A stretch of DNA of 64,000 bases from Candidatus Omnitrophota bacterium (GCA_041650935.1 JBAZKH010000006.1:29505-93504); one strand, 5' to 3'. Positions 36,511-53,467 are shown, counted from the stretch's first letter. The notes: a model not told the origin generated them from the letters alone. Program-made: numbers and translations.

Positions 36511-37494
36511 TTGATGGAAAATCACGTTAAAGAGTTAGGCATAAAAGAACTGGCGGATTTTAAGCTGTATTTTAAGCTGCAAGGCTACGCCGATGGCAGC
36601 ATCCATCAATACGTCACCTATATGAAAGAATTTCTGCAGTATATAAAGGAAAAATCGATAGAGAAGTTGTCCGAGGTTACGCCGGAGGTAATATCCAAAT
36701 ATCAGCTGTATCTATCCACTGTTAAGCGCAAGCGCCCGGACAAAAAGAACCTGTCGATGATAACGCAGATCCATAAGATTGTGGCGATAATGCACTTCTT
36801 CAGATTTTTGGTAAGAGAGAAAAACTATCTATACGATCCCACGAGCCACATCAAGCTAAGAACCCCTCCGAGAAAGCGCGTCAGGGAGGTATTGTCCAAG
36901 AAGGAGATGTTAAGGCTCTTAAACGCCCCCAACCCCGAAACTCCTTTGGGGTTACGGGATAAGGCGTTACTGGAGCTGTATTATTCCTGCGGCATAAGGA
37001 ATACCGAATCGAGGATGCTTACGGTAAAAGACGCTGACCTCGAGAATAGACTCGTAAGGATCCGGTTTCCGAAAGGCGGAGGAGATCAGGGAGGAGATCA
37101 GACAGTACCTATCGGAAGGATCGCAGCATTGTATATAGACGAATATATAAGAAATGCCAGGCCGAAGCTCCTTAAAAACGATTTGGAAGAGACGCTGTTT
37201 CTGTCCAAGAACGGCAAGCCCTTAAGTGACGGCATGCCGGCGCATATAGTCCAGAAATACGCCGCAATCGCCAAGATTAATCGGAAAACAGACGCTCATA
37301 CTTTAAGGCATACGTGCGGAACTCATTTATATGATAACGGCGCTGATATAAGGTGCATTCAGGAACTACTCCGTCACAAGTCATTGGATACAACCCAGAT
37401 TTACATCGACGTCAAGGCCACGAAGTTGCGCAAGGTCTTGGAGAAGACCCATCCCAGGGAAAGGGGAATAGTATATGCTCCCGCTATTGAATGA
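36511..37494 (+). CDS. Tyrosine recombinase (integrase family), trio member 1
   Basis: HTLRHTCGTHLYDNGADIRCIQELLRHKSLDTTQIYIDV carries the R-HxxR-H-Y catalytic signature. Confidence 0.85.
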   Translation: MMENHVKELGIKELADFKLYFKLQGYADGSIHQYVTYMKEFLQYIKEKSIEKLSEVTPEVISKYQLYLSTVKRKRPDKKNLSMITQIHKIVAIMHFFRFLVREKNYLYDPTSHIKLRTPPRKRVREVLSKKEMLRLLNAPNPETPLGLRDKALLELYYSCGIRNTESRMLTVKDADLENRLVRIRFPKGGGDQGGDQTVPIGRIAALYIDEYIRNARPKLLKNDLEETLFLSKNGKPLSDGMPAHIVQKYAAIAKINRKTDAHTLRHTCGTHLYDNGADIRCIQELLRHKSLDTTQIYIDVKATKLRKVLEKTHPRERGIVYAPAIE

Positions 37495-38425
37495 GTTTAA
37501 GGACGGGCTCGAAAAGGAAGGCCTTCGTCAGTGCACGATCGAGAATATGGTAAGGCACGTTAATTTTTTCGCGAAATACTACAAGTCTTTCGATATGAGA
37601 AAGGTCTCGAGTAAAGATATCAAAAAATTCAAAATATACATCATGCTGGAGCATATTACCGAGAAAGGCAAAAATAAAGGCAAGAAGATATGCGTCGAAT
37701 ATGTCATATCCATACTATGTTCTTTGATGAAATACTTCAAATTTTTGGCGCAGAGAAGACATATATTTTTCGATCCGACGCTTGACTTGGAATTCCCGAA
37801 GAAGAATCCGCATTTTCCGGATTATATACCGAGCGAAAAAGATGTGCAGGAGCTGTTGCAAAAGCCGGATACGAATACTTACTGGGGGATAAGGGACAGG
37901 CTCTTATTTGAGCTTGCCTATACCTGTCCGCTACGAAACCAAGAACTTGGACGACTATGCATTCAGGATATCGATATGAAGGATAGATACATTTATCCGA
38001 AAAGAGAAAAAGGCGGGTATGAGTGCGGCATACCGATAACGGATTCTACGCATCAAATTTTGGAGAAATATCTTTCGATATCGCGCCCCCGGCTTTTGAA
38101 AGGAGCAAAAACCCCCACGATGACCGATAGATTGTTTATAACTATATACGGTGGTCCCTTCAAGAAGACTACCATAGACGATATATTCGCAAAATACCGG
38201 GGAGATAAGAGGATACATCCTCACTTGATGAGGCATGCCTGCGCCGTCCATATGCTGAAAGGCGGGGCAAGGATAAGGGATATTCAGGTTCTGTTGGGCC
38301 ACAGGCGACTGACCTCGACCAATCGCTATACTCGCCTGACAGCCAACGATATTAAAGACATACAAGATAAATATCATCCAAGGGAGAGGAGTGCTAGACG
38401 TGCTGCCGCTGTTGGACGAATTTAA
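37475..38425 (+). CDS. Tyrosine recombinase, trio member 2
   Basis: HPHLMRHACAVHMLKGGARIRDIQVLLGHRRLTSTNRYTRL. Overlaps member 1 by 20 nt. Confidence 0.85.
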   Translation: MLPLLNEFKDGLEKEGLRQCTIENMVRHVNFFAKYYKSFDMRKVSSKDIKKFKIYIMLEHITEKGKNKGKKICVEYVISILCSLMKYFKFLAQRRHIFFDPTLDLEFPKKNPHFPDYIPSEKDVQELLQKPDTNTYWGIRDRLLFELAYTCPLRNQELGRLCIQDIDMKDRYIYPKREKGGYECGIPITDSTHQILEKYLSISRPRLLKGAKTPTMTDRLFITIYGGPFKKTTIDDIFAKYRGDKRIHPHLMRHACAVHMLKGGARIRDIQVLLGHRRLTSTNRYTRLTANDIKDIQDKYHPRERSARRAAAVGRI

Positions 38426-40247
38426 GCAGAAGTTATTAAAGGAACACAAGCTTATAACTATGACCAACACGATAAGTATATGCTTTATGCTGGAAGACTG
38501 GTATGGGTCAGACCGCATGGAGAAGATAACATGCGAAGACCTTGATCGATTCAAAAAATATCTTATGACAGAATACATTACGCGTACTGGCGGGCATTAT
38601 CATCTTTCAACCATCGTAGCGAGGTTCGAAGGGCTAAAGAAATATTTTGCGTTTTTGATGGAGAAGAAATATATATCGAAGGACCCCATGTGCGGTCTTG
38701 AGTTCCCGAAGACAAAACCGCAACTGCCACCGTGGCTGCCTACAGAGAAAGAAGTCCGTGAGCTTATAAATAAAGTCGACGCAAGCTCGCCTCAGGGCTC
38801 GTCCGATAAGGCGGTAATCGCACTAATGTCGATCATGCCGTTAAAGAATAAGGAAGTGGGGCCACTTACGGTAGACCAGGTGGACATAGAGAATAGATGC
38901 GTATATCCTATAAAAGGATCGAAAGAGCTCGCGATACCGATGCCCGATCCTATCTTTGAAATACTGAATAAGTATATTACGAAGGATCGTTATCATATAG
39001 TCAAGTGGCTTAAAGCCCCGACAGACTTACTTTTCGTAAGCAGGCTCGGGACGGCGTTCTTTGAGTCAACGCTGAATAATATATTCTCTAGATATAACAG
39101 ATATGCTCCGCGCGAGAAGCGCATATATCCGTATCTTATGCGGCCGGCTACGGCCAACCATATGCGAAAAAGGGGAATGAAACTCGAGGACATCCATAAG
39201 ATCTTGGGCGTAAAATACAGAACCGTCGGTACCTATACAACTCTTGCCAGAAATGAAATAAGGGCGGAAGAGGAAAGATACGTGGCAAAGATACCTTTGT
39301 TCAAGGAGTTTAAAGAGAAACTCGTAAAAGACGAGTTATCCCCGAACATGATTCACAACGCTTTGAAGGCGATCATATTCTTTGCCAAGTATTTAAAGAG
39401 CGATGATATGAAAAAGATCACCCCTGCCGATATCGGAAGGTGCAAAAATTATGTTTTAAACGAGTATATTACCATCGAGAATAGAAAATTAACCGAACAA
39501 GAGGTGGCTTTGAGGTTGCGTGCTTTAAAGACATATTTCAATTTTCTTGCGGAGAGCAGGTATCTTTCGTCAGATCCGGCTGTAGATATAAAGATTCCGG
39601 ACGTCCCTCCTCGCATAAATTGGTATCGGCCGACAGATGAAGCTATAGAAGAGTTCGCATCTAGACCTGATCCGTATACATACGTAGGCATGCGAGATGC
39701 TGTGATAATACGATTGTGGCACCTTACCGCGTTAAAACCCAATGAGCATATGGATCTAAAAGTGCAAGATATAGATTTGAATAAGAAAGTGCTTTATGTG
39801 CCAGGGCCAAGACGTCGCACCTTGAAATTGGATGATAAAACATATAAGGCCGTCGAGCGATATCTTACCAAATCCAGGCCTGTATTCTTGAAGAAAGCCA
39901 AGGAGCCTACCGATAAGTTATTTATGAATGAATGGGGAGGTCCTCTTGCTCTATGTAGTATGTATGATATATTTTGGAAATATAAGGGCGACAGGAAGAT
40001 TAAACCATGCATTTCAAGGCATGCGAGGGCTCTCAAAATGTTTCGTGACGGCTCCAGCGCCGAAGAAGTTAAAAAGGCCTTAGGTTTTAGATCTATTAGA
40101 TCGTGCCAAGCTTATAAAGCGATGGTTGCGAAGGATGTAACTGGTTTCTATAAGAAGGATCGCTTTGAGGAGAAGGTCAGGCTTATTAGACGAGAAAAAC
40201 CCGCTTACCATTCAGATAATTCCAATCTTGTAACACTTCCCAAGTAG
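38391..40247 (+). CDS. Tandem double tyrosine-recombinase-fold protein, trio member 3
   Basis: Two successive recombinase modules: YPYLMRPATANHM...ILGV...GTY and ISRHARALKMF...ALGF...CQAY. Both lack the second conserved His. 618 aa. Overlaps member 2 by 35 nt. Confidence 0.65.
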   Translation: MLDVLPLLDEFKQKLLKEHKLITMTNTISICFMLEDWYGSDRMEKITCEDLDRFKKYLMTEYITRTGGHYHLSTIVARFEGLKKYFAFLMEKKYISKDPMCGLEFPKTKPQLPPWLPTEKEVRELINKVDASSPQGSSDKAVIALMSIMPLKNKEVGPLTVDQVDIENRCVYPIKGSKELAIPMPDPIFEILNKYITKDRYHIVKWLKAPTDLLFVSRLGTAFFESTLNNIFSRYNRYAPREKRIYPYLMRPATANHMRKRGMKLEDIHKILGVKYRTVGTYTTLARNEIRAEEERYVAKIPLFKEFKEKLVKDELSPNMIHNALKAIIFFAKYLKSDDMKKITPADIGRCKNYVLNEYITIENRKLTEQEVALRLRALKTYFNFLAESRYLSSDPAVDIKIPDVPPRINWYRPTDEAIEEFASRPDPYTYVGMRDAVIIRLWHLTALKPNEHMDLKVQDIDLNKKVLYVPGPRRRTLKLDDKTYKAVERYLTKSRPVFLKKAKEPTDKLFMNEWGGPLALCSMYDIFWKYKGDRKIKPCISRHARALKMFRDGSSAEEVKKALGFRSIRSCQAYKAMVAKDVTGFYKKDRFEEKVRLIRREKPAYHSDNSNLVTLPK

Positions 40248-40343: not shown

Positions 40344-42443
40344 ATGGATACTTTGATAAATGCCGGCATAAACGGTATAGTAGATGGCGAAAACCTTCCG
40401 ACACAGATTGAGGCTCTTGCCATGGCCTTTCAAACCCAGATAACATCAAAAGTTACGGCCGAAGTTATCTCTTTTAGTATAAAGCAAGCGGGAGAATTAT
40501 TAGGCGTGTCTCCCGCCCTGAGTTCGTATCTGGCGTCGGCAGGCACGGCGATCTCATCGTCATTTATAAAGAATAGTTTTCTTTCGCAATTCGACCTGTC
40601 CAATTTTGTAAAAGATGCTTTCAATAGCACGATAGTTTCGGTAGACGTGGATTTACTTGAAAACATAAACCCCGCATTCTCTGCCTTAAAGTCCGCGGGA
40701 TTAATGGGTGCCATCGAAAATATACTTGATGCCGGAGGTGTTTTTGAAGGGGCGTTCAGTATTCTTAGTAAAATAGTTCCTTCCGCTTTCAAGACGACAG
40801 GTGATTTAGTTACGGGCTTCTTTGGCGGGGCGAAGACTTTTATAGAACTTGTAACCGACTCAGGTCCGCTTGCGGCCATGAATAGCGCTCTTAATTCATT
40901 ATTTACAAGGCAAACTATCGAAACTGTGGCGGCCCAAGGCGGCGTGGAAGAGTTGCCTGTTGAGACAATATTCCTAAACGGTAAGGTTGCCCAAAAGATA
41001 ACCTTAAATGATAATGCGGCGCTATACATGGATGAAAACGGCGACCTGATATCGGTAGAAGAGAATGGTGTCACATGCACAGGTCCATTTGCCTGGACGC
41101 CCGAAGACGGGCTTAAATTAAGAAGCGGCACTGTATCGGGAAGTATGGAGACAGGCTATAACATATGGGCCGAAATAGATGACGGCTCGGCCCGGCATAT
41201 TGAAATACAGAACGCGGACGGCGAGGAGATTGTAACGATAGACCCGGAGACTACCGGCAAAACTATAGATTTGAGTACGATGTCCGTTCAGACTGTGCCG
41301 GAATTCAATTTTACCGTTCTGAACGCGATAATATCTTTTGCGAATATCTATATAGCCAAGATAAATCAGGACTTTGTGGAATCGATAACTCAAAAAGTTG
41401 CCGCCATTTCCGCCGGCTCACTATTTGGTGAGTCAAATAAATTCCTGTATACCCTGGCGAATGGTATATGTAATACTGAAATCGATCCAAATACGCCACC
41501 TCAATATATAAAAAACTTAGAGCAAGATATGGTAAATCGTGGCAATGGTGATATATCGATTAGCGACATTATCCCGGTAATACTTTATAAAGGAATGACA
41601 GAATCGTCGGACTTTAATACAGTCCTCGATGTCATTAAATGGGTAGCGGAGTCGCAAGGGGTGTATAAAGATAGCCTTACCGAAAAAGCCCGGGCTGATT
41701 TAGTCGCGTACTTTGTCGCGCATCCCTCGGAATGGAACAGGCCTATAGTGGCAATGGGATATTCTGGTGGTCTCATGCCTTTAGTTGAAGCTATGTCCTC
41801 GTCGGTGTATAATGTTAAGACGCTGGTAGGGTTAGGTGCTGCAACAGCGTATATAAAGAAAGACCTAATCCCTATTCTGTGCGACCTTACTAATTATGTC
41901 TCCAACAGAAAGGCAGACGCTGTCAGGTTTGTTCTGGAAAAACTGAATATCGGACAGCAGCTTATAAACCAGTTTGTAGAATATGTTCGTACGTATGATT
42001 CTACAAGTACGGTTATTTCAAATTCCGCAAAAGAAATTATTAAAGAAATACTGAACGTAACCGGATTGGACGAAATGACATTTCCATTCCTGGCGCAATC
42101 AAAGACCGACCTTATAGTTAACGTTTGGGGTACAAAAGACATGCTTTATGAAGTCGGCATAGCCGGGCAGAGGACGAATCTCTGCGGCAAAAACACTTAT
42201 AACATAGAGATTGTTGGTGCAACTCACTTTGACTACATGAGACGTGATGCCTTAGATGCTAAAAACCCGCCCGATACATGGAATAATACAGTGGCGAGTT
42301 TTGTGGCGGATTTAATAATAGCAAGTGAAGATAGTTATAATCTAGACAAGTTTTTAACGAAAAAAATATCGGAAGGTCTTTTGTATATGGACTATGCAAG
42401 AGGCGTATATGTTGTCCGACTTCCAGGGTGTGATATATGCTAG
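40344..42443 (+). CDS. Large protein with C-terminal GxSxG alpha/beta-hydrolase (lipase/esterase-like) region, possible lipase effector
   Basis: GYSGGLMPLVEAM (GxSxG), with a downstream ATHFDYM His candidate. No signal peptide. Confidence 0.4.
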   Translation: MDTLINAGINGIVDGENLPTQIEALAMAFQTQITSKVTAEVISFSIKQAGELLGVSPALSSYLASAGTAISSSFIKNSFLSQFDLSNFVKDAFNSTIVSVDVDLLENINPAFSALKSAGLMGAIENILDAGGVFEGAFSILSKIVPSAFKTTGDLVTGFFGGAKTFIELVTDSGPLAAMNSALNSLFTRQTIETVAAQGGVEELPVETIFLNGKVAQKITLNDNAALYMDENGDLISVEENGVTCTGPFAWTPEDGLKLRSGTVSGSMETGYNIWAEIDDGSARHIEIQNADGEEIVTIDPETTGKTIDLSTMSVQTVPEFNFTVLNAIISFANIYIAKINQDFVESITQKVAAISAGSLFGESNKFLYTLANGICNTEIDPNTPPQYIKNLEQDMVNRGNGDISISDIIPVILYKGMTESSDFNTVLDVIKWVAESQGVYKDSLTEKARADLVAYFVAHPSEWNRPIVAMGYSGGLMPLVEAMSSSVYNVKTLVGLGAATAYIKKDLIPILCDLTNYVSNRKADAVRFVLEKLNIGQQLINQFVEYVRTYDSTSTVISNSAKEIIKEILNVTGLDEMTFPFLAQSKTDLIVNVWGTKDMLYEVGIAGQRTNLCGKNTYNIEIVGATHFDYMRRDALDAKNPPDTWNNTVASFVADLIIASEDSYNLDKFLTKKISEGLLYMDYARGVYVVRLPGCDIC

Positions 42444-43201
42444 CAAGGATTCTATCTGTTATAGTGATAACAGTATTGTCATCTTCCAGCTTATTTTGTG
42501 AAGAAACATTACCATCTAGAATTGATAATGCCACTCAAAAAATTATAAAAAGAACAAATCTTGAGCGGGAAGGGCGTCTTTATGCAAAACAAGGCTTATA
42601 TGACGAGGCACTCGCGAAGTATAAAGCGGCCATGGATCCTTCCTTGCTTAATTATGACCATGAAGTATCTACGGCTAAGTGGTCTATCGAAGAAATTTAT
42701 AAGCGACAAGGGAAATTTGAGCAAGCTCTAGAAATGGTGAACGATAAGTTAAAAACTTTTAAGGCTCAAACTCCCAATGATAATATATTTACAGGAAACG
42801 ACGAGCTTGGTAAGGAACGCCTCGAACTTTTGGCGCTTATAAAAGCTCGTGACACTAAAAATAAAAAACCCATTTATGAATATATAGATTATATAAAAAC
42901 AAAATCGAAATATGCGAAATTACTTCCACCAAAAGGTTATATTACAGGGGGAAGCGATGTACTTATAGATAACCTAATCCACCTCTACGACTACCTTCAC
43001 GACTACGATGCCGGTATCGCTTTTATGGATGAAATAATCAAATACCACACCCAGCATAAGGACAAAAACCACAGGTCTGCTCATGCCAAAGATGTCAAAG
43101 AATACATCCGCGTCAAAAAGGCCTGGGAACTTGACAAAAAAACCGGCCAGCATGGACATTTGCAAGGTGTGATCCGAACCTCCGATGTAATATCGTGGTG
43201 A
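42437..43201 (+). CDS. Secreted TPR-like protein, putative cognate immunity protein
   Basis: N-terminal signal peptide (MLARILSVIVITVLSSSSLFC). Start overlaps the stop of the upstream gene by 7 nt. Confidence 0.35.
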   Translation: MLARILSVIVITVLSSSSLFCEETLPSRIDNATQKIIKRTNLEREGRLYAKQGLYDEALAKYKAAMDPSLLNYDHEVSTAKWSIEEIYKRQGKFEQALEMVNDKLKTFKAQTPNDNIFTGNDELGKERLELLALIKARDTKNKKPIYEYIDYIKTKSKYAKLLPPKGYITGGSDVLIDNLIHLYDYLHDYDAGIAFMDEIIKYHTQHKDKNHRSAHAKDVKEYIRVKKAWELDKKTGQHGHLQGVIRTSDVISW

Positions 43202-43228
43202 CGCAGATATAACGAGTCATGCAAAAAC

Positions 43229-43253
43229 GCCACAAACCCCTTGTGGCATTTTT
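43229..43253 (+). terminator. Rho-independent terminator GCCACAA-ACCCC-TTGTGGC + ATTTTT
   Basis: Perfect 7-bp stem, 5-nt loop and a T-run, immediately after the 42437-43201 stop. Confidence 0.6.
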
Positions 43254-43334
43254 GAAATTGACATAGCTATATCTAGGTAGTATTTGTCAAGGCTTATCCA
43301 AGTAGATAGTTTAAAAGGACACTATACGTTCATT

Positions 43335-43358
43335 TCCACAACCCCTTGTGGCATTTTT
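43335..43358 (+). terminator. Second copy of the same hairpin, CCACAA-CCCC-TTGTGG + CATTTTT
   Basis: Near-identical repeat 106 nt downstream of the first. Confidence 0.45.
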
Positions 43359-43643
43359 ATACCGGGTTAGCTTGTTTTTCCTCAAAAAGTAGGGTATAAT
43401 TATAATTTATCCGATTTACATATGTTATTAATTGGCTCAATAGACATTGTTAAAGGGTAATAACATATGATAGCATGCTTTTATGGAAGAAAGCATGACG
43501 GTTTTTAACGAAGTCATGGATTATCTCAAGATATACAAGATTATCGAGCAGGAAGCTTGTGGATTTTGTTGCAAAAGAATGTCTTATGCATGGGTTGGTT
43601 AAAAAATAAGGTGTAGAGACGGTATGCGGAGAGGTATTTTAGC

Positions 43644-44879
43644 ATGAAGAAACGAGTTGTTATAACAGGTGTGGGTGCTATTGCTTCCAATAGTATTGGT
43701 ATAGATGAATTTTGGGATGCTCTTAAAGCTGGTAAGAGTGGTATTAAAAAAATAACCAGTTTTGATACGAAACAATTCCCGACAAAAGTTGCCGGGGAGA
43801 TTACCGACTTTAACCCGGAAAAATTCCTTGATCTTAAACAGGCAAGAAGGATGGATAGGTTTGTTCAATTCGCAGTTTCGGTAGCGAAGATGGCGGTTAA
43901 AGATTCCGGCTTAAACATAAAAGAGGAAGATTCTAAGCGTATTGGAGTTATTACAGGCACTGCTACAGCCGGTCAGGGTTGGGTATTCACGCAATACGAA
44001 ATATTCCGGTCAAAGGGGTATAAAAGACTCAATCCTTTTACGGCAGCTTCGACCTTCCCTAACGCATCATCTTCTCAAATATCTCTTGAGTTCAAAATTA
44101 ACGGTCCAAGCGAGACATTCTCAACCGGCTGTGCCTCTGGTGGTATTGCTATGGGTCATGCACTTGAGCTAATCCGGAACAATAAGATTGATATTGCGAT
44201 TGTTGTAGGAAGTGAAGCATTGCTTTATGCGCCGATATTTGGAACATATTGTGTTGCTCGAATTATGTCAACCAAAGACGGGAGCATAATAAAAACACCT
44301 GCGCCTTTTGATAAAAATAGAGACGGCATGGTGTTAGCTGAAGGTGCCGGTTGCATAATTTTAGAAAGTCTTGATCATGCGAAAAAACGCAAAGCCCAAA
44401 TGTATGCAGAGTTTATCGGATGGGGTGAAACATGCGATGCATATCATATAATATCAACCGAACCCCACGGAAAAGAAGCAGAGCGCGCTATCCTGATGGC
44501 TATAGAAGATAGCGGTATAAAGCTAGACGATATTAATTATGTAAAGATGCATGGCATAGGTGATTCCGTTAACGATAAGATTGAAACGCAGGTTATGAAA
44601 CGAGTTTTCGGGAAAAAGGCTTATGATATTCCTATGACATCGATCAAGTCTATGATAGGGCATACCCAAGGTGCCTGCAGCGTTCTAGAGACGGTTTCAA
44701 CTGTTCTTGCGATGAAAAATAGTATGATTCCACCCACGATTAATTATGAGACGCCGGATCCCGAATGTGACTTAGACTATGTACCAAATAATGCCAGGTC
44801 TTATAAGATAAGTTGTGCTTTGATAAACACCTTTGGATTTGGCGGAAAAAACGTATCGCTAATCATTAAAAAAATATGA
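43644..44879 (+). CDS. Beta-ketoacyl-ACP synthase (KAS II / FabF-like)
   Basis: Active-site Cys in FSTGCASGGIAMGHA. His motifs HGIGD and GHTQGA. Terminal GFGGKN. Confidence 0.85.
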   Translation: MKKRVVITGVGAIASNSIGIDEFWDALKAGKSGIKKITSFDTKQFPTKVAGEITDFNPEKFLDLKQARRMDRFVQFAVSVAKMAVKDSGLNIKEEDSKRIGVITGTATAGQGWVFTQYEIFRSKGYKRLNPFTAASTFPNASSSQISLEFKINGPSETFSTGCASGGIAMGHALELIRNNKIDIAIVVGSEALLYAPIFGTYCVARIMSTKDGSIIKTPAPFDKNRDGMVLAEGAGCIILESLDHAKKRKAQMYAEFIGWGETCDAYHIISTEPHGKEAERAILMAIEDSGIKLDDINYVKMHGIGDSVNDKIETQVMKRVFGKKAYDIPMTSIKSMIGHTQGACSVLETVSTVLAMKNSMIPPTINYETPDPECDLDYVPNNARSYKISCALINTFGFGGKNVSLIIKKI

Positions 44880-46219
44880 AAATACTACTTATAAGGCCAT
44901 CAAGCTATGATGGCGTAGGCAAATTAAGGCGTTTCAAAAAAGCGTATATGCCTTTTTTGACGCTTCCACTTATCAAGGCATTAACGCCTAAAAATGTTGA
45001 AATAAGGCTTATAGACGAATATCTTGACGAAGTGGATTTTAAGGCACAGCCTGACTGTGTAGGAATCACAGGTTTAACTTCGAACATAAAAAGAAGCTAT
45101 GAGATAGCGAATAAGTTTAGAAGTAAAGGTGTAAGGGTAGTCTTGGGTGGCCACCACGTTACTGCATTACCTGATGAAGCGTTGCAACATGCTGATGCAG
45201 TAGTTATTGGCGAGGCTGAAAATGTTTGGGAAGATTTGATAAATGATTTATATAGCAAAAAACTAAAAAGAATCTACTCATGCGATACACTTTTTGATTT
45301 GAAAAATTCAATAATTCCTGACTATTCATCAATTGATCTAAAAAGGTATTTAAGCGCGCCATTTGCCAGAGGTCCTCTTTTTCCAATTCAGGCCACAAGA
45401 GGATGTCCCTTTGATTGCGAGTTTTGTTCTGTCGCATCTTTTTTTAAAGGCACATTTCGTACTAAACCTGTTAGTTTAATTTTAAAAGAAATAAAGCAAC
45501 TTCGAGCCACATATTACTTTTTTGTAGATGATAACATAATTGGTAATCCTTCCTACGCAAAGGAGTTGTTTGCTGCTCTGGTACCTTTAAAGATCCACTG
45601 GATAGGGCAATTTAGTACTACCATTCTCAAATTCCCAGAATTAGTCGAATTGGCGGGTAAGAGTGGGTGTACATCTGCATATATAGGGATAGAAAATTTA
45701 TCAGATAAAAATTTAAAAAGCGTAAAAAAAATTAATAAGATAAATGAATATTCTGATCTTTTAAATATGCTAAACAGAAATGGCATAAAGCCTTTTGTCA
45801 GTATGATACTCGGGATGGAAGATGATGATAAGGATGTATTTATACGTAATCTTGATTTTTTGATAAAAAATAAGGCAGGCAAAGCGTATTTCTATATTTT
45901 AACACCTTTCCCAGGGACCCCTCTTTTTGAAAGAATGAATAAGGAAAATAAAATAATAACTAAAGACTGGAATTGTTACGACGGATCTCGGGCTGTATTT
46001 AAACATAGTAGACTATCTTGTAAAGAGTTGGAAGACGGCTTGTGGTATTCGTACAGAAGATTTTTTTCGTTGTCCCAAATATTTAAAAGAAATTTTACAT
46101 ACTTATTTAAGAATCCATTGATGTATTTGGTGTTACTGTTTTATGATATGTATTTCCATAGTGCCATTTTAAAAAATACCCACCCCTTGAGCGAAGGGGG
46201 TAAGCATAGGATAAATTAA
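44876..46219 (+). CDS. B12-binding domain radical SAM enzyme
   Basis: N-terminal B12-binding fold (KILLIRPSSYDG...VGITGLTS...VVLGGHHVT). rSAM motif GCPFDCEFC. Overlaps the KAS gene. Confidence 0.8.
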   Translation: MKILLIRPSSYDGVGKLRRFKKAYMPFLTLPLIKALTPKNVEIRLIDEYLDEVDFKAQPDCVGITGLTSNIKRSYEIANKFRSKGVRVVLGGHHVTALPDEALQHADAVVIGEAENVWEDLINDLYSKKLKRIYSCDTLFDLKNSIIPDYSSIDLKRYLSAPFARGPLFPIQATRGCPFDCEFCSVASFFKGTFRTKPVSLILKEIKQLRATYYFFVDDNIIGNPSYAKELFAALVPLKIHWIGQFSTTILKFPELVELAGKSGCTSAYIGIENLSDKNLKSVKKINKINEYSDLLNMLNRNGIKPFVSMILGMEDDDKDVFIRNLDFLIKNKAGKAYFYILTPFPGTPLFERMNKENKIITKDWNCYDGSRAVFKHSRLSCKELEDGLWYSYRRFFSLSQIFKRNFTYLFKNPLMYLVLLFYDMYFHSAILKNTHPLSEGGKHRIN

Positions 46220-46222
46220 ATC

Positions 46223-46786
46223 ATGTTGTTATGTGATATGGTATTTTTAATTTTTAGTATTCTACTCTGTGCTTATATCATTATAGACTTTATACTGAAT
46301 ATTAAGAATGAATGGCAGGAGAAAATAATTTTTCGGTGGAGTCAACCGCTAGCTATTGCATTGCTGGTAGTAATCGTAATAAGTACTGTATCCGAACGGT
46401 ATATTGCTAAGAGAGATATCAATTATGTAATATCGTTGGTAGGTATCATATTGTTTTTAACAGCCTTTTTGTTACGTATTTGGTCAAAAAAAAGCTTAGG
46501 ACAATATTATAGCTCGCATATCCAAGTAAAAAATAATCATCGCATTGTAGAGAATGGGCCTTACAAAATAATGCGGCATCCTTATTATTTCAGTATCATT
46601 ATCGGCGCCCTAAGTTTCCCCCTAATAGTGAATGCGTATTTTTCATTTTGTCTCGCTCTTATTACTATTGTTCCGCTCATTGTAATTAGGTGTTACATAG
46701 AAGAAGCAATGTTATTGCAAAGATTCGGAAACCAATATCGGAAATATATGGAAAAGACAAAGCTATTTTCTAATAGAGAGAATTAA
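46223..46786 (+). CDS. ICMT/PEMT-family integral membrane methyltransferase
   Basis: Multi-TM protein with the diagnostic NGPYKIMRHPYYFS motif. Confidence 0.6.
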   Translation: MLLCDMVFLIFSILLCAYIIIDFILNIKNEWQEKIIFRWSQPLAIALLVVIVISTVSERYIAKRDINYVISLVGIILFLTAFLLRIWSKKSLGQYYSSHIQVKNNHRIVENGPYKIMRHPYYFSIIIGALSFPLIVNAYFSFCLALITIVPLIVIRCYIEEAMLLQRFGNQYRKYMEKTKLFSNREN

Positions 46787-48861
46787 TGAATTATTACATC
46801 ATTTCCAGCTTAGCCATCATATTATGCGGTTTTGTTTTAGCGGCCTTTGTATTATTCAAAAACATGAAGGGGCTTATCAGCAAGCTATTTGTTTTTTGGA
46901 CAATGAGCGGTGTAGTTTGGGGTTTTGGATTGTATAAATTATTTACCGCCAATTTTCATAATGAGGCACTATTTTGGGGTAAGTTCTCTCATGCCGGTGC
47001 AATCTTTATTCCAGCCTTCTTCTTGCATCTTGTTTACTCCTTAACAAATAAAAAAGCACAAAAAATAGTATTTATAGGATATGCCATTAGTTGTACGTTA
47101 TTGTTGTGTGATTTCACGCCATTATTTATAAAGGATGTAGTAGCAAAGCTGAATTTCAAATATTATTATGTTCCCAACATAGCTTATCATTTCTTTACAT
47201 TATATTTCTTTTCAGGAATAACGTATGCTCATTATGTAGCGTATAAACAATTTCGTCTCGAAAGTGGGTTAAAACGTAAGCAACTCAAATGTTTTTTAAT
47301 AGCTTTTGTTCCCGCTTTTTTCGGTGGCTTTACAACATTTTTATTGGTTTATAACATTCCTATCCCCCCAATAGGATTAATCTTAATACCCCCATATACC
47401 ATTATAATCGCATACGCAATCGTGCGTCACCAACTAATGGACATCGAAGTCATAATAAAGAAGACCCTTGTCTTTGCGACGCTATTTACGCTGGTCTTCG
47501 GTATCTTTGTCGGAGTAGCGCTTCTATTACAGCATGTTATCGGCGCCGGCAACAACCTGTTAGGCTTTGCCATAAGCTCTCTTATTATCGTCTTCACCGT
47601 CCGGCCGCTTGAGATATTTCTTATAAAAATCACCGATCGCTATCTATTCCAAAAGAAATACGACTATAAGCATCTCATAAGGGAATTTATGGATGAGTTA
47701 AGGACGATGGTCCTGAATACTGCCGGCATAGCGCAGTCAACGATAGATTTTCTCAATACCTCTATCCGTCCCACGATTGCCGCGGTCTTTTTGTATAATA
47801 AATTTACGAATAAATACGATCTTATAACTTCCAGCGATTTTAAAGAGAAAGATTTTAAGATAGCAAATGATTCAATGACTATCAAAGCATTAGGCGAGAC
47901 CGGCAAGATCATAAAAATAAACGATGACAAGCTGATCTCTTTGAAAGAACGGGATCAATTCATAGTGTTAGGTATCGGATTAATAATCCCCCTTTTAATA
48001 CATAAAGAATTGATAGGCCTTCTTTGCTTGGGGAAGAAAAAATCAGATGAAGATTATGCGGAAGAAGATATTGAAACATTATCCGGCCTGTCGGGCGCTT
48101 TAGCGATCTCGCTTAATAATGCTCAACTTTTTGACGAAAGGGCTGACGCGGAGAAGAGGGCGCTCGTTGGCACAATTGCGACAGGCATTAATCACGAGAT
48201 TGGCAACCCTCTTAATATAATAACGATAAAACTCGACACTTTCAGGATATTGGCAAAAGAAGGTTTACTCGCCCATAAGACTAAAGAAGAAATAATAGAC
48301 GAAGTCGATAAGATGACAAAGATCTGTCTCGATAGCACCCAGAGGATCGCCGAAATAACAAAGCAGGTAGCCGAGTTTGCCAAACCGGATAAGAAACTGA
48401 TTTTCGACAAGGTCAATGTTAATGAAACTATCGATGAAACTATAGTTTTTCTTAAGCATGGAATGATTCTGGATGCCGGGAAGATCGAAAAAAATATTTT
48501 GTGCGATCCTGTTTACGCGATAGCGGACAGGGGCCAGCTAAAGCAGATCCTTTTTAACCTGATTAAGAATGCTTCTCACGCGATCGATAATGAAACCGGT
48601 AGAATAGTGGTAAGCGTTGACAGGAATAACGTGGGAGAGATTATCATTAAAATTACTGACAATGGTCATGGGATGCCGAAAAATGTTTTAGAGAAGGTAT
48701 TCACGCCATTTTTTACAACTAAAGAACCGGGAAAAGGCACCGGACTTGGCCTTGCCCTGGTGAAAATTATGATAGATAGAAACAACGCCAAAATTAAAGT
48801 TGAAAGCGAGGAGGGGGAGGGGACAACCTTTACCCTGGTTTTTAAGGGAGGCCTATTATGA
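46786..48861 (+). CDS. Sensor histidine kinase, paralog of ORF 104-2311 (7TM-like N-terminus, GAF-like middle, HisKA/HATPase_c)
   Basis: Shares VRHQLMDIEVIIKKTLVFATLF and ITDRYLFQKKYDY blocks with the first kinase. H-box INHEIGNPL. C-terminal GHGMP...GKGTGLGLALV...GTTFTLVF. Confidence 0.8.
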   Translation: MNYYIISSLAIILCGFVLAAFVLFKNMKGLISKLFVFWTMSGVVWGFGLYKLFTANFHNEALFWGKFSHAGAIFIPAFFLHLVYSLTNKKAQKIVFIGYAISCTLLLCDFTPLFIKDVVAKLNFKYYYVPNIAYHFFTLYFFSGITYAHYVAYKQFRLESGLKRKQLKCFLIAFVPAFFGGFTTFLLVYNIPIPPIGLILIPPYTIIIAYAIVRHQLMDIEVIIKKTLVFATLFTLVFGIFVGVALLLQHVIGAGNNLLGFAISSLIIVFTVRPLEIFLIKITDRYLFQKKYDYKHLIREFMDELRTMVLNTAGIAQSTIDFLNTSIRPTIAAVFLYNKFTNKYDLITSSDFKEKDFKIANDSMTIKALGETGKIIKINDDKLISLKERDQFIVLGIGLIIPLLIHKELIGLLCLGKKKSDEDYAEEDIETLSGLSGALAISLNNAQLFDERADAEKRALVGTIATGINHEIGNPLNIITIKLDTFRILAKEGLLAHKTKEEIIDEVDKMTKICLDSTQRIAEITKQVAEFAKPDKKLIFDKVNVNETIDETIVFLKHGMILDAGKIEKNILCDPVYAIADRGQLKQILFNLIKNASHAIDNETGRIVVSVDRNNVGEIIIKITDNGHGMPKNVLEKVFTPFFTTKEPGKGTGLGLALVKIMIDRNNAKIKVESEEGEGTTFTLVFKGGLL

Positions 48862-49220
48862 GTAAAAAAATTCTCATATTGGATGATGAAGGCGAATATT
48901 TAGTCTCTTTAGGCAATTTTTTACAAGAATTCAAATTTGCGGTTTGCATAACAATGACAACCACGCAGGCGCTCGAGACTATCAAGCTCGATAAGCCGGA
49001 CCTGGTATTATTCGATTATAAATTACCGGATATGGACGGCGACCATTTTCTTAAAAAGGCCAAGGAACTTAGCCCGTCAACTTCTTATATATTAATCACG
49101 GCATGGAATGACCCCGTCATCTTAGAAAGATTCAAAAAAATGGGCGTAAAAGAAGTGATTGTAAAACCTATTAATCTCGAAGAGCTTCTAAAAAGCATTA
49201 ACATTATCCTTAAAGAGTAA
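48858..49220 (+). CDS. Response regulator, receiver domain only
   Basis: KILILDDEG...LVLFDYKLPDMDG...YILITAW. Coupled to the upstream kinase. Confidence 0.75.
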   Translation: MSKKILILDDEGEYLVSLGNFLQEFKFAVCITMTTTQALETIKLDKPDLVLFDYKLPDMDGDHFLKKAKELSPSTSYILITAWNDPVILERFKKMGVKEVIVKPINLEELLKSINIILKE

Positions 49221-49245: not shown

Positions 49246-52200
49246 TTGACAATTGCTAAAAAAAGCGTATACTTTTTTACAATAAATATGACGCGTAATT
49301 CCCTGATCAAAAACTTCGCGCTTGCATTTTTATTTACCACCCTTATAATTTATGCCAATCCGGCATATGCCGCCAATCGTTCCCCCGCAGTAGGTGTAAT
49401 TACTCCCGATAATGGCACGTCGGCCCCGACACAGCGTGTAACATTTACGACCAGCTATTCCGATCCCGACGGCGCAAGCGATATAAGCCTTGCGCACCTT
49501 CTTATTAATACTACAGCAACCCCGCAAAATTGTTTCGCGGCCTACTACGACAATAAGCTCAATAAGCTTTATTTTGCAAACGATAAGGGTGTTATGGTAG
49601 GAGGGTATACTCCGGGTTCGTCCAGAACGATATCGAATTCGTATTGTAAACTCGAATGCTCTAAGACGGTGGTTGCCAAAACCGCCAATACCATTACCGT
49701 AACCTGGATGGTGGTCTTTAAACGGTCGTTCTCGGGGACGATCTATGACGCCTATCTGAAGGTAAACGATAAACAGAATGCTTCCACCGGCTGGGTCAAA
49801 AAGGGTGCATGGGCTGTAAATTTCCCGCCCAAGGTTGGCACGCTTAGTCCATCAAGGGGGACTTCCGTGCCGGGTCAAGAGATAATTATCTCTTCCAAGT
49901 ATCGGGATCGCGATAAAGGCGATAATATAAAACTTGCCTACCTGTTAATAAACACTTCGACCGAATGTCGGAATTGCCCGGCCGTATACTACGACAATAG
50001 CGCGAATAAGCTCTACATGTTGAATGATCAGGGAGACACAAGTGTCGGAGGCTTTGCCCCGGGATCTTCCAATATTATCGAAAATTCTTATTGCAAGCTT
50101 AATTGTTCCGCTACGCAAGTTACCAAGTTCAGCACCAATATGACCGTAAAATGGGACGTGACTTTTAAGCACCTTTTTGCCGGCAAGACTTACGACGTTT
50201 ATTTAAAGGCGGTCGATAAGACAGACTCTTCAACGGGCTGGGTTAAGAAGGGTGTGCGGATGGTGAAGGTTACGGATACAGTTGCGCCCGTTGGCAAGGT
50301 TGTGATAAATAGCGGAGCCGAATATACCAATACTGCAGCGACGAATCTGAAGCTATCGGCACAGGATAATTCCGGCGGGTCAGGGCTTTCTCAGATGCGG
50401 TTTTCGAACGATGACGTCAATTGGTCCTCTCCAGAAGCATATGCCACTACGAAGACGTGGATGTTGTCGTCCGGCGACGGGAATAAGACGGTCTATGTTA
50501 AGTTTTCTGACCTTGCAGGCAATTGGTCGAGTGCCTATTCCGATTCGATAAAACTCGATACCATACCGCCGCGTGTGATTATAACCAGCCCGCAGGATGG
50601 CGCTATTGTTACTGTCCCCGATCTTACCGTGAGTTATACATCCGACGGTGTTTCGAAGACAAAACAGCTTACGCTTCTGGAAGGCGATAATCTTATAACG
50701 ATAACAGAGACAGATCAGGCGGGGAATATCGGTACGGCATCGATGCATGTAAGGTTAAATACGGTCCCGCCGATACCTATAACCGACGTTAATGTTTCAC
50801 CAGGCATCATCTCGCCTAATGGAGACGGAAAAGCGGATACCGCCACTATCAACGCTACTGCCGGCATCCCTTGCGACTACACGATCACGATAAAAAACTC
50901 CTCTGGCACACCCGTAAAGACATTCCAAGGCCACAGTGCTACAGGAGCTATCTCCCGTGTCTGGGACGGTAAGAACGGATCGGGCGCCACTCAACCCGAA
51001 GGCACATATACCTACTATATAGACGTCACCGACGGGGTAAGCACAGCCCACACTGTTCCGCAAGCCATATATATCGATATTACTTCCCCTCAGGCAAGTG
51101 TCGTAGCTCCGTTAGCGGGCAATATCTCAGGAACTGTTCCTATAAAGGTCCTCGCAAATGACAGCCGGTGGAGGCAGGGTGATTGGAGCGCCGCCACATT
51201 ATACTACGGTCAGGGTTCAAGCCCTTCGCAGTGGATCATGCTAAATCGTTCTTATCTTCCGCTTGTTCTGGATAACGAAGGCCAGGCACCCGTGTTGTAC
51301 AGTTGGGATACCACAACTCTCGCAAACGGCGACTATGTTATAAAGTGGGTGGTTGTCGATGCTGCCGATAACGTTACGACTGTCAATGTGCCTGTAACAG
51401 TAACCAACGCCGGCCCTGACATAGCCAACCTCACCGTCGCCCCGAACCCGTTCTCGCCCGACGGAAGCGGGACGTGGATAGACCTTACGACCGGTGAGGT
51501 CTTCCAGGATCCAGGCCCGAACCGCGTCCTGGATGACATTGCGGCTATATCGTTCAATGTCTCAACCCACAGCTTCTTCAACATACGCGTGCTCGATTCT
51601 TCGGATAATCTAGTCAAACAACTTGTTTATAGCGCTCTCTATCCCGACTCCGCAACCCATAAGATCGAATTACAATGGGATGGCCGTAACGATAGCGGCG
51701 CATTAGTGCCTAATGGCCAGTACAAACTTGTTGTGAACGGGGGAAGTGTCCAGAAGGAAAAGTCTATCAACATAACTGTCGACAAAATGCCGTTTATCAC
51801 CGTTGCCAATATAGCCCCGAATCCTTTTTCACCAGATGGCGATGGTACCGACGAAGTTACCGCCATCTCTTACAATATTTCCGAAATATCGTATGTTACA
51901 GTCGAAATTTATAATCAGCAAAATTCTTTGGTTCGTACCCTGGTCAATCGTGAGCTGTTCCCGGCTGGAGATCATCTTCATATCTGGGATGGTAAAGACG
52001 CCCAGGGCGCAGCTATTCCAGAGGGTAGATATACAATAAAGATTAGCGCCCAGGCTCAAACCGGAAACGATGCTGAACCTGTCTATCTGAACGTAGGCGT
52101 CCTCTTCATTTCCAACATACATATCTCGACAGATAGTATAAATCCTTACGTGGGCGATACGGTCAGCATAATTTATCAGATGGCAAAGAGCAGTGTCCTC

Positions 52201-53034
52201 ACCATAAAGGTTTACGATCCGTCAAATTCCCCGGTGCGGACTCTTATATCGAACCAGAGCCGGCAGGCAGGGGCTCATTCCGAAGTTTGGAACGGCAGAG
52301 ATAACGCAAATCAGATCGTGAATGATGGACCGTACTACTTCGTGATTGAAGATAGCGCAAGCGGCCTGCCTCAGGTAATTTACGACCCGCGCGGGACAGG
52401 AGGAAAGGATATTTCGAAAAGCATAAATTTTGCTGCCTCTAATTTTAATCCGCTGCTCAACCAGTTTTGTATTATGAATTATAATCTGCCCCAGGCCGCC
52501 AGGATCAATATCAAAGTCCGCAGTGAGAGGTTCAGCGGCCCTGCCATCAAGGTGATAAGGTACGAGGAGCCGACCGCGCACGGTATCCATCAGGCTACCT
52601 GGGACGGCAGGGATGAATCCGGCAACTTTGTCGATATGAGATCATTCACATTCGGCCTTTGGGGGTATACACTCGATGAGAATTCTGTCATAGTCTGCGG
52701 CGGCAGGCCCGTCATAAGCGATCTAAACGTAAGCCCGGTACGGTTCAGCCCATATGTCAATCCTTATAGCACGAATGCTTCCCAGGCAACCGTATCGTTT
52801 AATCTCTCGAAGCTTGCGGACGTCACGATAAATATTTATAATTCCAAAGGTAATTTAGTGCGCGCGCTGGTGACTAATCAGGCAAGCGCTCAGGGCGCCA
52901 ATGCCTTTGTGTGGGACGGCAAAGATAACTCCGGGAACCTTGTCCCTAACGACTATTACAGGATAATGGTCCAGGCCGGTAAGAATGGTAACTATTCGGA
53001 AACGTGTACGGCGCATAGCGAAATATGTTATTAA
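49246..53034 (+). CDS. Giant secreted surface protein with duplicated N-terminal modules and multiple FlgD-Ig-like repeats
   Basis: Signal peptide present. Two homologous N-terminal modules, each ...SDPDGASDISLAHLLINT...YYDNKLNKLYF... Repeated NPFSPDGDG...(V/I)YN...LVRTL Ig-like units. Confidence 0.5.
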   Translation: MTIAKKSVYFFTINMTRNSLIKNFALAFLFTTLIIYANPAYAANRSPAVGVITPDNGTSAPTQRVTFTTSYSDPDGASDISLAHLLINTTATPQNCFAAYYDNKLNKLYFANDKGVMVGGYTPGSSRTISNSYCKLECSKTVVAKTANTITVTWMVVFKRSFSGTIYDAYLKVNDKQNASTGWVKKGAWAVNFPPKVGTLSPSRGTSVPGQEIIISSKYRDRDKGDNIKLAYLLINTSTECRNCPAVYYDNSANKLYMLNDQGDTSVGGFAPGSSNIIENSYCKLNCSATQVTKFSTNMTVKWDVTFKHLFAGKTYDVYLKAVDKTDSSTGWVKKGVRMVKVTDTVAPVGKVVINSGAEYTNTAATNLKLSAQDNSGGSGLSQMRFSNDDVNWSSPEAYATTKTWMLSSGDGNKTVYVKFSDLAGNWSSAYSDSIKLDTIPPRVIITSPQDGAIVTVPDLTVSYTSDGVSKTKQLTLLEGDNLITITETDQAGNIGTASMHVRLNTVPPIPITDVNVSPGIISPNGDGKADTATINATAGIPCDYTITIKNSSGTPVKTFQGHSATGAISRVWDGKNGSGATQPEGTYTYYIDVTDGVSTAHTVPQAIYIDITSPQASVVAPLAGNISGTVPIKVLANDSRWRQGDWSAATLYYGQGSSPSQWIMLNRSYLPLVLDNEGQAPVLYSWDTTTLANGDYVIKWVVVDAADNVTTVNVPVTVTNAGPDIANLTVAPNPFSPDGSGTWIDLTTGEVFQDPGPNRVLDDIAAISFNVSTHSFFNIRVLDSSDNLVKQLVYSALYPDSATHKIELQWDGRNDSGALVPNGQYKLVVNGGSVQKEKSINITVDKMPFITVANIAPNPFSPDGDGTDEVTAISYNISEISYVTVEIYNQQNSLVRTLVNRELFPAGDHLHIWDGKDAQGAAIPEGRYTIKISAQAQTGNDAEPVYLNVGVLFISNIHISTDSINPYVGDTVSIIYQMAKSSVLTIKVYDPSNSPVRTLISNQSRQAGAHSEVWNGRDNANQIVNDGPYYFVIEDSASGLPQVIYDPRGTGGKDISKSINFAASNFNPLLNQFCIMNYNLPQAARINIKVRSERFSGPAIKVIRYEEPTAHGIHQATWDGRDESGNFVDMRSFTFGLWGYTLDENSVIVCGGRPVISDLNVSPVRFSPYVNPYSTNASQATVSFNLSKLADVTINIYNSKGNLVRALVTNQASAQGANAFVWDGKDNSGNLVPNDYYRIMVQAGKNGNYSETCTAHSEICY

Positions 53035-53049
53035 GACAAGAGGACGAAG

Positions 53050-53466
53050 ATGATTAAAAGAATTGTTCTGACCCTGTTTCTCGTAAGCGCGTTTACCGTT
53101 TTCGCCTCGGCGGCGGAAAAATTGCCTAAGAATGCGGTAAACGTAAAATTGGTATTTCCCGCCGCCGCTAATACCGCAATGAGGGCGCCGGCGCCCATAG
53201 CGGAACCGCAGGAGATAGCCGGGCAGGTCTTCGTCGATTTTGTGCCGCACCCGGAGGGCGTTGAGAAGGACAGATACCTTGTGGAATATTTTTTAGACGA
53301 CCAGCTTATTTATAAAACTACGGCAAGCGGAACGTTTAAATATACGCTGGATACCGCGAAATACGAAAACGGCCGGCATAAACTCATAGTAAACTTCTGG
53401 GATGATTCAGGCCCGTCGGCTATCGGTGTACGGGAAGTAGTGATAAATAATAAGTCGGGGGCGTAG
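53050..53466 (+). CDS. Small secreted protein
   Basis: Signal peptide (MIKRIVLTLFLVSAFTVFASA). Sits immediately upstream of the Rhs gene. Confidence 0.3.
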   Translation: MIKRIVLTLFLVSAFTVFASAAEKLPKNAVNVKLVFPAAANTAMRAPAPIAEPQEIAGQVFVDFVPHPEGVEKDRYLVEYFLDDQLIYKTTASGTFKYTLDTAKYENGRHKLIVNFWDDSGPSAIGVREVVINNKSGA

Positions 53467-53467
53467 A

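Follow-up and report, generated by a model that had tools for sequence, protein, structure and literature searches.

An exchangeable enzyme and sensor module in an Omnitrophota phosphorelay operon, with a possible role in lipid-type signalling

Introduction

What could a fatty-acid-type ketosynthase, a B12-binding radical S-adenosylmethionine (SAM) enzyme and a membrane methyltransferase be making together, if the genes that encode them run on into the gene of a histidine kinase? The question is raised by a locus in a stretch of 64,000 nucleotides, hereafter the window, from a metagenome-assembled genome of a Candidatus Omnitrophota bacterium (GCA_041650935.1, JBAZKH010000006.1:29505-93504), which is also present in two further assemblies (L001 and L002). 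Omnitrophota is a phylum of very small, mostly uncultured bacteria, and a search of the accessible literature turned up neither an account of this locus nor a ligand assigned to the HisKA_7TM type of sensor nor a report of signalling in Omnitrophota. A sequence-only reading of the same DNA had let the locus end with the third enzyme gene at 46786 and had proposed either a lipid-modifying pathway or the tailoring of a peptide encoded by a small open reading frame (ORF) in the leader. The operon does not stop there; it continues, translationally coupled, into the genes of a histidine kinase of 691 amino acids (aa) and of a 120-aa receiver, and these two, absent from that reading, prove central to understanding the locus. 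As judged from the alignments described below, the enzymes and the sensor-coding part of the kinase form one exchangeable 3.8-kb module that has been recombined into a conserved Omnitrophota phosphorelay backbone.

A five-gene operon with a mosaic kinase

The predicted operon consists of the genes for the ketosynthase, the B12-radical SAM enzyme, a methyltransferase of the isoprenylcysteine carboxyl methyltransferase (ICMT) type, a HisKA_7TM/GAF histidine kinase and the receiver, all five of which are intact.

43644-44879, + strand: FabF-like beta-ketoacyl-acyl carrier protein (ACP) synthase II, first gene of the variable module (PF00109 164.9 bits, PF02801 112.6 bits)
44876-46219, + strand: radical SAM enzyme of class B (B12-binding), from a narrow clade that is uncharacterised (PF02310, PF04055)
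46223-46786, + strand: integral-membrane SAM methyltransferase of the ICMT/PEMT family (PF04140, PF04191)
46786-48861, + strand: histidine kinase of 691 aa, HisKA_7TM/GAF type
46786-47444, + strand: kinase codons 1 to about 220, the variable sensor part with the HisKA_7TM region, in the same homology block as the enzymes
47403-48861, + strand: conserved transmitter of the kinase with the last hydrophobic segments, GAF, DHp and ATPase parts (blastn to L176-L178)
48858-49220, + strand: stand-alone receiver of 120 aa, last gene of the operon (PF00072 76.9 bits)

The ORFs named earlier exist and lie at 43483-43602, 43644-44879, 44876-46219 and 46223-46786. The description of the three enzyme genes as overlapping holds for the ketosynthase and radical SAM genes, which share 4 nt (ATGA), but not for the radical SAM and methyltransferase genes, which are 3 nt apart. 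Further downstream, the methyltransferase stop and the kinase start overlap by 1 nt (TAATG), and kinase and receiver genes by 4 nt (ATGA). From the radical SAM to the receiver gene, the sole terminator-like site on the + strand is weak and lies inside the kinase gene. The kinase matches PF16927 with its residues 9-220 (40.4 bits, cut-off 28.6) and PF02518 with 85.9 bits.

Two sets of related loci reveal the composite nature of the kinase. L003, which also stems from a metagenome and carries the three-enzyme cassette of the window, gives a single continuous blastn alignment with the window (43646-47444 against 894-4727 of L003, 67% identity over 3866 nt) that spans the ketosynthase start codon to about codon 220 of the kinase. 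Homology to three related Omnitrophota loci, L176, L177 and L178, begins at 47403, 47406 and 47437, respectively, and runs to 49210-49219 at about 75% identity. The same division is seen in the protein: residues 1-200 of the kinase are 67% identical to L003 and 35-36% to L176-L178, and residues 241-691 are 18% identical to L003 and 77-82% to L176-L178, while the receiver is 87.5% identical to that of L178. The crossover falls on the motif AYAIV..LMDI, which is conserved across these kinases. A search with the sensor half returned more than 100 homologues, far beyond the radical SAM clade described below, and all those with a named source come from Omnitrophota; a comparison of the kinase alignment with viral contigs gave no match.

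L176-L178 carry the three kinases closest to that of the window and share a backbone in the order HTH_17 gene (not in L176), RR291, cassette, kinase, 120-aa receiver, two receivers and a cupin gene on the opposite strand. RR291 is a 291-aa response regulator with a receiver domain and a C-terminal domain of unknown function, encoded directly upstream of the kinase cassette in all three loci. The cassette before the kinase differs in each, being a Methyltransf_20 protein in L176, a Methyltransf_20 protein fused to an alpha-oxoamine synthase in L177, and an ACP with a 4HBT thioesterase in L178. Hence, alternative modules at the same slot are predicted to bring other acyl or methyl chemistry together with other, very different sensors. 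The pattern recurs between L177 and L178, whose transmitters are 91.6% identical and whose sensors 23.9%, with different cassettes. Across 28 backbone kinases, mean pairwise identity rises from 22-36% over residues 1-200 to 50-94% from residues 200-220 onwards (median 25.5% for the sensor against 72% for the transmitter), and a few pairs share a sensor type. One of the kinase homologues, P0127, has a sensor 79% identical to that of L178. In addition, radical SAM identity correlates with sensor identity across seven loci (Mantel r = 0.71, p ~0.0008).

Two further observations concern the regulatory parts of such loci. Three loci (L167 at about 6099-6275, L177 at 3790-3978, L178 at 5176-5355) have a small HTH_17 (excisionase/MerR-like) gene just upstream of RR291 or the module; it is not found in the window and may encode the transcription factor of the locus. 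Moreover, at 104-2663 the window encodes a paralogous HisKA_7TM/GAF kinase of 735 aa (P0238; 36% identity in the sensor region) followed by a receiver; any cassette upstream of this kinase would fall outside the window.

The enzymes and the radical SAM clade

The identities previously assigned to the ketosynthase, the class B radical SAM enzyme and the ICMT-family enzyme are confirmed by Pfam, NCBIfam and structure matches. The ketosynthase scores 457.6 bits against the KAS II subfamily model NF005589 (above the cut-off of 387), 467.3 bits against the fabF equivalog TIGR03150 (cut-off 493.75) and 367 bits against Bacillus subtilis FabF (4LS5; E 9e-109, about 43% identity). Alignment to the latter places its Cys-His-His triad in TGCASG, MHG and GHTQGA, with HGIGD in place of the usual HGTST motif. 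In the radical SAM enzyme, the B12-binding domain PF02310 reaches 44.6 bits (cut-off 32.1) and PF04055 64.1 bits, and the CxxxCxxC cysteines C177, C181 and C184 are invariant in alignments A1 and A2. The protein is 100% identical to one from a metagenome-assembled genome of Candidatus Omnitrophota. No NCBIfam model reaches its cut-off for this protein, and among solved structures even the nearest match it weakly (AprD4, 6FD2, E 1.6e-10). The methyltransferase has four hydrophobic segments and matches PF04140 (ICMT, 58.5 bits, cut-off 24) and PF04191 (PEMT, 49.7 bits); its RHPxY and C-terminal EE motifs align with Methanosarcina ICMT (4A2N, 52 bits), and its score against the protein-S-isoprenylcysteine O-methyltransferase equivalog NF040696 is 94.7 bits, below the cut-off of 160.

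Nine sequences with 50-73% identity make up the narrow clade in which the radical SAM enzyme falls, within a very large family at 45% or less. Eight of the nine were covered (the window, L003, L004, L165/166, L167, L168-170, L171/172 and L173; P0006 was left out). A homologous kinase is the next gene in all eight, after an ICMT-like gene where one intervenes; a ketosynthase gene lies upstream of the radical SAM gene in six and the ICMT-like gene is present in three. L003 and L004 have a gene for a FadL-type outer-membrane channel before the module. Wherever the contig runs on, a response regulator follows the kinase; in L004, L165 and L168-170 it is of the sigma-54 type and precedes polysaccharide chain-length and tyrosine-kinase genes. 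The kinases of the clade span two unrelated backbones, a sigma-54 type and a receiver-only type, whose transmitters are only 18-29% identical.

The wider family was represented by about 170 loci (radical SAM identity 35-45%) obtained when the radical SAM alignment was scanned against genomes and metagenomes. Among the matches listed, these scans yielded only paralogues of 28-46% identity and no member of the close clade, and the loci mostly have no such kinase as a neighbour. Their neighbours, again among the matches listed, comprise a second B12-radical SAM enzyme (at least 30) and ketosynthases (at least 16 loci), as well as the membrane-lipid proteins lipid A-type acyltransferase (at least 11), FabD-like (at least 10), PlsC-like (at least 5) and LolA. 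These lipid-gene neighbourhoods agree with the pairing of FabF and B12-radical SAM enzymes in lipid clusters of anammox bacteria, which is known and unexplained (PMC13459092). Taken together with the retained ketosynthase triad, they support the earlier suggestion of lipid-type chemistry in general terms. A more distant locus (L174, 4462-14443), with a radical SAM enzyme 45% identical to that of the window, lies in another kinase-linked cluster (FadL, alpha-oxoamine-type aminotransferase, DUF362, two B12-radical SAM enzymes, FemAB-like protein, histidine kinase, LuxR-type regulator) and may be a further variant of the theme.

A proposed ligand for the co-inherited sensor

That the enzymes and the sensor travel as one 3.8-kb unit suggests that the lipid-like product of the enzymes is detected by that very sensor. 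In such a pathway, the ketosynthase would extend an acyl-ACP, the B12-radical SAM enzyme would tailor one of the chain's unactivated carbons, in the simplest case by methylating it, and the membrane methyltransferase, where present, would cap a carboxylate or similar group. The hydrophobic product could then act as the ligand of the co-inherited seven-transmembrane (7TM) sensor, and the signal would probably pass between cells, as with CqsA/CqsS or PhcB/PhcS, with different cassettes giving rise to different signalling "dialects", as in agr and comQXP. We hold with moderate confidence that the cassette makes a lipid-like ligand for this sensor, so that the two constitute a matched signal/receptor pair whose signal is probably exchanged between cells. 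Every known cassette is of acyl-thioester or methyl-transfer chemistry, and the L177 enzyme falls into the family of CqsA. This alpha-oxoamine synthase family takes in serine palmitoyltransferase and BioF in addition to the autoinducer synthase CqsA. Exchange between cells is favoured by the FadL gene upstream in two loci, by the diversity of the cassettes and by the known CqsA/CqsS and PhcB/PhcS systems, while a role in the cell's own membrane is favoured by the analogy to DesK and by the lipid genes found around members of the wider radical SAM family.

Several points weigh against a signal/receptor pair. As genes for an ACP, a reductase and a dehydratase are lacking from the module, its ketosynthase would need to borrow the housekeeping fatty-acid machinery. 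The cassette is known at only four backbone loci, and the receiver lacks an output domain. In the window the backbone is degenerate, with RR291 truncated and the HTH_17 gene, two receivers and cupin of L176-L178 missing, and the system may be decaying there. Physical linkage alone yields some co-variation of radical SAM enzyme and sensor, and sensor domains usually evolve faster than kinase cores; it is from linkage and mosaicism that we infer the ligand/receptor step.

On a more tentative note, Omnitrophota might possess a "plug-and-play" form of cell-to-cell signalling, in which non-homologous acyl cassettes, each with its own 7TM sensor, are swapped by recombination into one conserved phosphorelay. 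The variant in the window would then make a new class of autoinducer, a fatty-acyl molecule that a FabF-type ketosynthase builds, a B12-radical SAM enzyme tailors and a membrane methyltransferase caps. If the signalling reading is right, the locus would offer a first candidate for chemical signalling in Omnitrophota and a rare case of signal diversification by swapping whole enzyme classes along with the sensor, instead of by allelic drift of one synthase. The reading would also provide a function for one clade of the very large, uncharacterised COG1032-type B12-radical SAM family and point to a class of ligands for the HisKA_7TM sensor domain. Should the idea of signalling prove wrong, the mosaic still constitutes a clean natural experiment on which part of the kinase matches which enzymes.

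Alternative explanations

Conceivably, the enzymes remodel the lipids of the cell's own membrane, for example by oxygen-independent methyl branching, while the 7TM kinase monitors the membrane in the manner of DesK and no product is exchanged. The wider radical SAM family beside PlsC, lipid A acyltransferase, FabD and LolA genes, the FabF/B12-radical SAM pairing known from anammox lipid clusters (PMC13459092) and the membrane location of both the ICMT-like enzyme and the sensor are in line with this scenario. It poorly accounts, however, for the occurrence of non-homologous cassettes (ACP-thioesterase, methyltransferase-oxoamine synthase) in one slot, each with a sensor of its own, and it offers no account of the channel for hydrophobic molecules encoded before the module in L003 and L004. 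Furthermore, the regulated enzyme of the Des system forms a separate transcription unit and is not encoded upstream in the kinase operon. Overall, we regard membrane remodelling as a serious but rather unlikely explanation.

Alternatively, enzymes and sensor may have no functional link at all, if the slot between regulator and kinase is a recombination hot spot and the 5' end of the kinase gene was merely swept along by crossover at AYAIV..LMDI. The position of the right-hand junction on this conserved motif speaks for this reading, and the window is rich in mobile and decayed DNA, including three integrases, IS200, RHS and gene relics. Yet, the chimeric kinase is intact and in frame, the radical SAM enzyme stands beside this kinase family in two unrelated backbones with 18-29% transmitter identity, and the cargo consists throughout of acyl or methyl chemistry rather than of random genes, which makes a purely mechanical association improbable.

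A third possibility is that a protein is modified, for example the kinase sensor itself, in which case the co-variation would reflect the matching of enzyme and substrate. Some B12-radical SAM enzymes do methylate proteins, with a weak match here to the model for the methyl-coenzyme M reductase glutamine C-methyltransferase (63 bits), and ICMT enzymes act on protein C-termini. The intact FabF-type triad and the sister cassettes with ACP, thioesterase and oxoamine synthase nevertheless point to acyl small molecules, and no CaaX-type C-terminus was seen; protein modification is accordingly given very little weight.

The leader and its small ORF

The remaining alternative, a peptide product, depends on the leader upstream of the ketosynthase gene, which contains the following features.

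43395-43406, + strand: two adjacent TATAAT boxes (43395-43400 and 43401-43406), a plausible -10 element for the operon with a poor -35
43419-43469, no strand assigned: perfect 12-nt inverted repeat, CATATGTTATTA - 27 nt - TAATAACATATG (arms 43419-43430 and 43458-43469)
43460-43609, + strand: relic of the 3' end of RR291 (pseudogene fragment), frame +2, found by tblastn with three orthologues
43483-43602, + strand: small ORF of 39 aa, frame +1, judged to be a chance ORF over the relic and not a gene

The small ORF exists as previously quoted, with 39 aa and three Cys residues at 43483-43602, but as a gene it does not stand: it appears to be a chance frame across the decayed 3' end of the upstream response-regulator gene of the backbone. 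A tblastn search aligned this stretch with RR291 of L177 (aa 243-291, E 7e-7), L178 (aa 250-291, E 2e-6) and L176 (aa 273-292, E 8e-4). All three matches stop at the C-terminus of the query, which corresponds to window position 43606 and is directly followed by TAA at 43607-43609; the relic contains one in-frame stop, and its C-terminus reads ...SRKLVDFVAKECLMHGLVKK before the stop codon, as compared with ...NKKLADFVAKECIKQGLVKK in L178. Since this homology runs in frame +2 and the small ORF in frame +1, the leader is in part a decayed gene end and the ORF a frame that arose by chance. We consider this frame +2 homology to the RR291 C-terminus to be the decisive point against the small ORF.

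Other evidence concurs. Searched against 5.8 billion proteins, the 39-aa sequence found only itself, having been annotated once, by JGI, as P0121. Conservation of the ORF, which the sequence-only reading had named both as its check and as its possible refutation, is absent: no similar small ORF was found in ten syntenic or related loci, the best Smith-Waterman score of 32 being lower than the 95th percentile of the null (35). In the two closest syntenic loci, L003 and L004, the FadL-type gene ends 27-31 bp before the ketosynthase gene, which leaves no room for a small ORF. A hairpin at 43474-43497 has the first ATG of the ORF in its loop and the second within its 3' stem. The GGAAGAA sequence that had been likened to a ribosome-binding site ends just 3 nt before the second ATG, too close for such a function. 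In annotations, the 39-aa ORF (P0121) should thus not count as a gene.

With the ORF falls the proposal of a ribosomally synthesized peptide with post-translational modifications (RiPP) that, besides being acylated, would receive a methyl group from the radical SAM enzyme and have a carboxyl methylated by the ICMT-like enzyme: although a three-Cys ORF is present, some B12-radical SAM enzymes are RiPP methylases (with a weak ApyD match here) and a small precursor gene is present in agr and comQXPA operons, the orphan status of the ORF and its absence from all syntenic loci, its position over a relic in another frame, its start codons within a hairpin, the lack of an acyltransferase, protease or exporter and radical SAM scores far below cut-off (ApyD NF050148, 98.2 against 750 bits; TIGR03975, 37.7 against 281.85 bits) effectively refute it.

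The other leader elements described earlier fared better. A TATAAT box is indeed present, one base further downstream than given, at 43395-43400, with the second box adjacent; as the -35 region is poor, no + strand promoter passes a scan for consensus promoters. Both inverted repeats were found again and are perfect, namely the 12-nt pair listed above and an 8-nt pair, CATGCTTT at 43474-43481 and AAAGCATG at 43490-43497, whose hairpin is followed by a T-run. Situated at the upstream edge of the gene relic, the 12-nt repeat could represent a recombination scar, an RNA hairpin or an operator; with one mismatch allowed, the window contains three matches to it where 0.4 would be expected. The leader RNA (43405-43650) folds better than 200 of 200 shuffled sequences (z = -3.97). 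No riboswitch or other family was found in an Rfam search of 43000-43900 at E <= 1, in agreement with the previous statement that no B12 riboswitch motif is recognisable.

Upstream of these elements, two terminator-like hairpins at 43229-43253 and 43336-43358 carry the same exact 19-nt repeat (AACCCCTTGTGGCATTTTT), 105 nt apart. Both fall between the stop of a tetratricopeptide repeat (TPR) gene (43201) and the TATAAT boxes, and the DNA that they enclose may correspond to a small transcript or to a duplicated terminator.

Surrounding DNA

A second set of relics lies 17 kb downstream.

60499-60870, + strand: relic of the 5' part of RR291, aa 1-124, with 67-71% identity to RR291/RR292 of L176-L178
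60980-61186, + strand: relic of the C-terminus of a Methyltransf_20 cassette gene, aa 293-361 (last 69), with 83% identity to L176 (E 2e-34)

A single insertion cannot explain a C-terminal RR291 relic upstream of an N-terminal one. This second set is followed by a toxin-antitoxin pair, Phd/YefM-like and RelE/ParE-like, at 61334-61871, as judged by eye from the translations. On the other side of the operon, three consecutive tyrosine recombinase genes (36511-37494, 37475-38425 and 38391-40247; region 34248-40247) are preceded by the gene for a 738-aa protein with an MTBMA_p00010-like domain. Together with genes for a 699-aa protein of unknown function and the TPR protein (40344-43201), the recombinases give the impression of a mobile island by which the upstream regulator gene was truncated.

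Just downstream of the receiver gene, a strong promoter-like site (49246-49273, TTGACA-16-TATACT, 11 of 12 matches) overlaps the TTG start of a mechanically called 1262-aa ORF. The gene caller used for L001 starts this gene downstream of the site, at window position 49288, and the 1262-aa gene is therefore probably a separate transcription unit. It encodes a FlgD_ig/CHU_C protein and belongs to a polymorphic-toxin region (49246-60019) that further contains an RHS/DUF6531 toxin gene (53468-57244), Imm32 (58936-59274) and an IS200 transposase gene (59432-60019). Comparable genes are found in L177 (1-2511, a 2728-aa RHS/Peptidase_C39 protein) and L173 (298-708, Imm63). The position of polymorphic-toxin genes beside the signalling locus in three genomes may reflect a link between signalling and kin discrimination or a coincidence; such a neighbourhood would fit a role in kin recognition. 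PADLOC models of defence proteins gave weak generic domain matches only and no known anti-phage defence system.

Comparison with known systems

PrsK/PrsR resembles part of the clade, in that L004 and L168 have, after the kinase gene, one for a sigma-54 response regulator and then polysaccharide chain-length and tyrosine-kinase genes, and the PrsK, PrsR and pepcterm_ChnLen models give partial matches in these two loci. Membership is nonetheless rejected, as every model of the PEP-CTERM system stays under its cut-off, with 129.9 bits for the window kinase, 165 for L004 and 158 for L168 against TIGR02916 (cut-off 300) and PrsR scores of 436-446 against a cut-off of 503; the window showed neither an exosortase nor a PEP-CTERM protein. 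DesK/DesR-des likewise links a polytopic kinase to an enzyme that modifies acyl chains, but differs from the locus described here in sensor family, enzyme, gene order and co-transcription, and we know of no cassette swapping in the Des system.

As for the enzymes, the pair of FabF and B12-radical SAM enzyme is, to our knowledge, not a known autoinducer synthase. In the ladderane clusters of anammox bacteria, too, a B12-binding radical SAM enzyme is encoded alongside a FabF homologue, and the substrate is presumed to be an acyl-ACP (PMC13459092). The window locus differs from them by having no amxACP, FabZ or desaturase-like gene and by having a histidine kinase as its conserved partner. A ladderane-type identity is not supported for the radical SAM enzyme, which reaches 81.1 bits against TIGR04072, the model for ladderane-type lipid B12/radical SAM proteins, below the cut-off of 360.

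Closer in arrangement are systems in which an enzyme of acyl chemistry is encoded beside a polytopic histidine kinase that senses its hydrophobic product, such as CqsA/CqsS and LqsA/LqsS with their alpha-hydroxyketone signals. In the PhcB/PhcS/PhcR system of Ralstonia, which uses 3-hydroxy fatty acid methyl esters, PhcB is the methyltransferase that makes the fatty acid methyl ester. The window locus shares with the CqsA, LqsA and PhcB systems an acyl-chemistry enzyme encoded beside a polytopic histidine kinase, but its ICMT-like membrane methyltransferase is unrelated to PhcB. No oxoamine synthase is encoded in the window, and the L177 fusion protein scores 241.9 bits against NF005526 (cut-off 428).

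The architecture as a whole is best compared with agr of Staphylococcus and comQXPA of Bacillus, in which the signal-making genes and the N-terminal membrane sensor form a hypervariable segment whose variants are exchanged by recombination. At the level of sequence, the locus has the architecture of these specificity loci: enzymes and sensor vary together, and transmitter and regulator are conserved. Here, too, biosynthetic genes lie directly upstream of, and co-oriented with, those of a polytopic kinase and a regulator, and the variable and conserved parts have incongruent relationships. Polymorphism of this kind has been described for the com pherotypes (PMC4408185). In agr and comQXPA, however, peptides serve as signals and the variable genes represent alleles, within the same families, that have diverged, whereas the window locus has no peptide, and in this locus and its relatives different enzyme classes alternate in front of a sensor of the HisKA_7TM type. 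Compared with the known specificity loci, it is the presence of putatively lipid-type, non-homologous cassettes in a synthase/receptor locus that would be new here.

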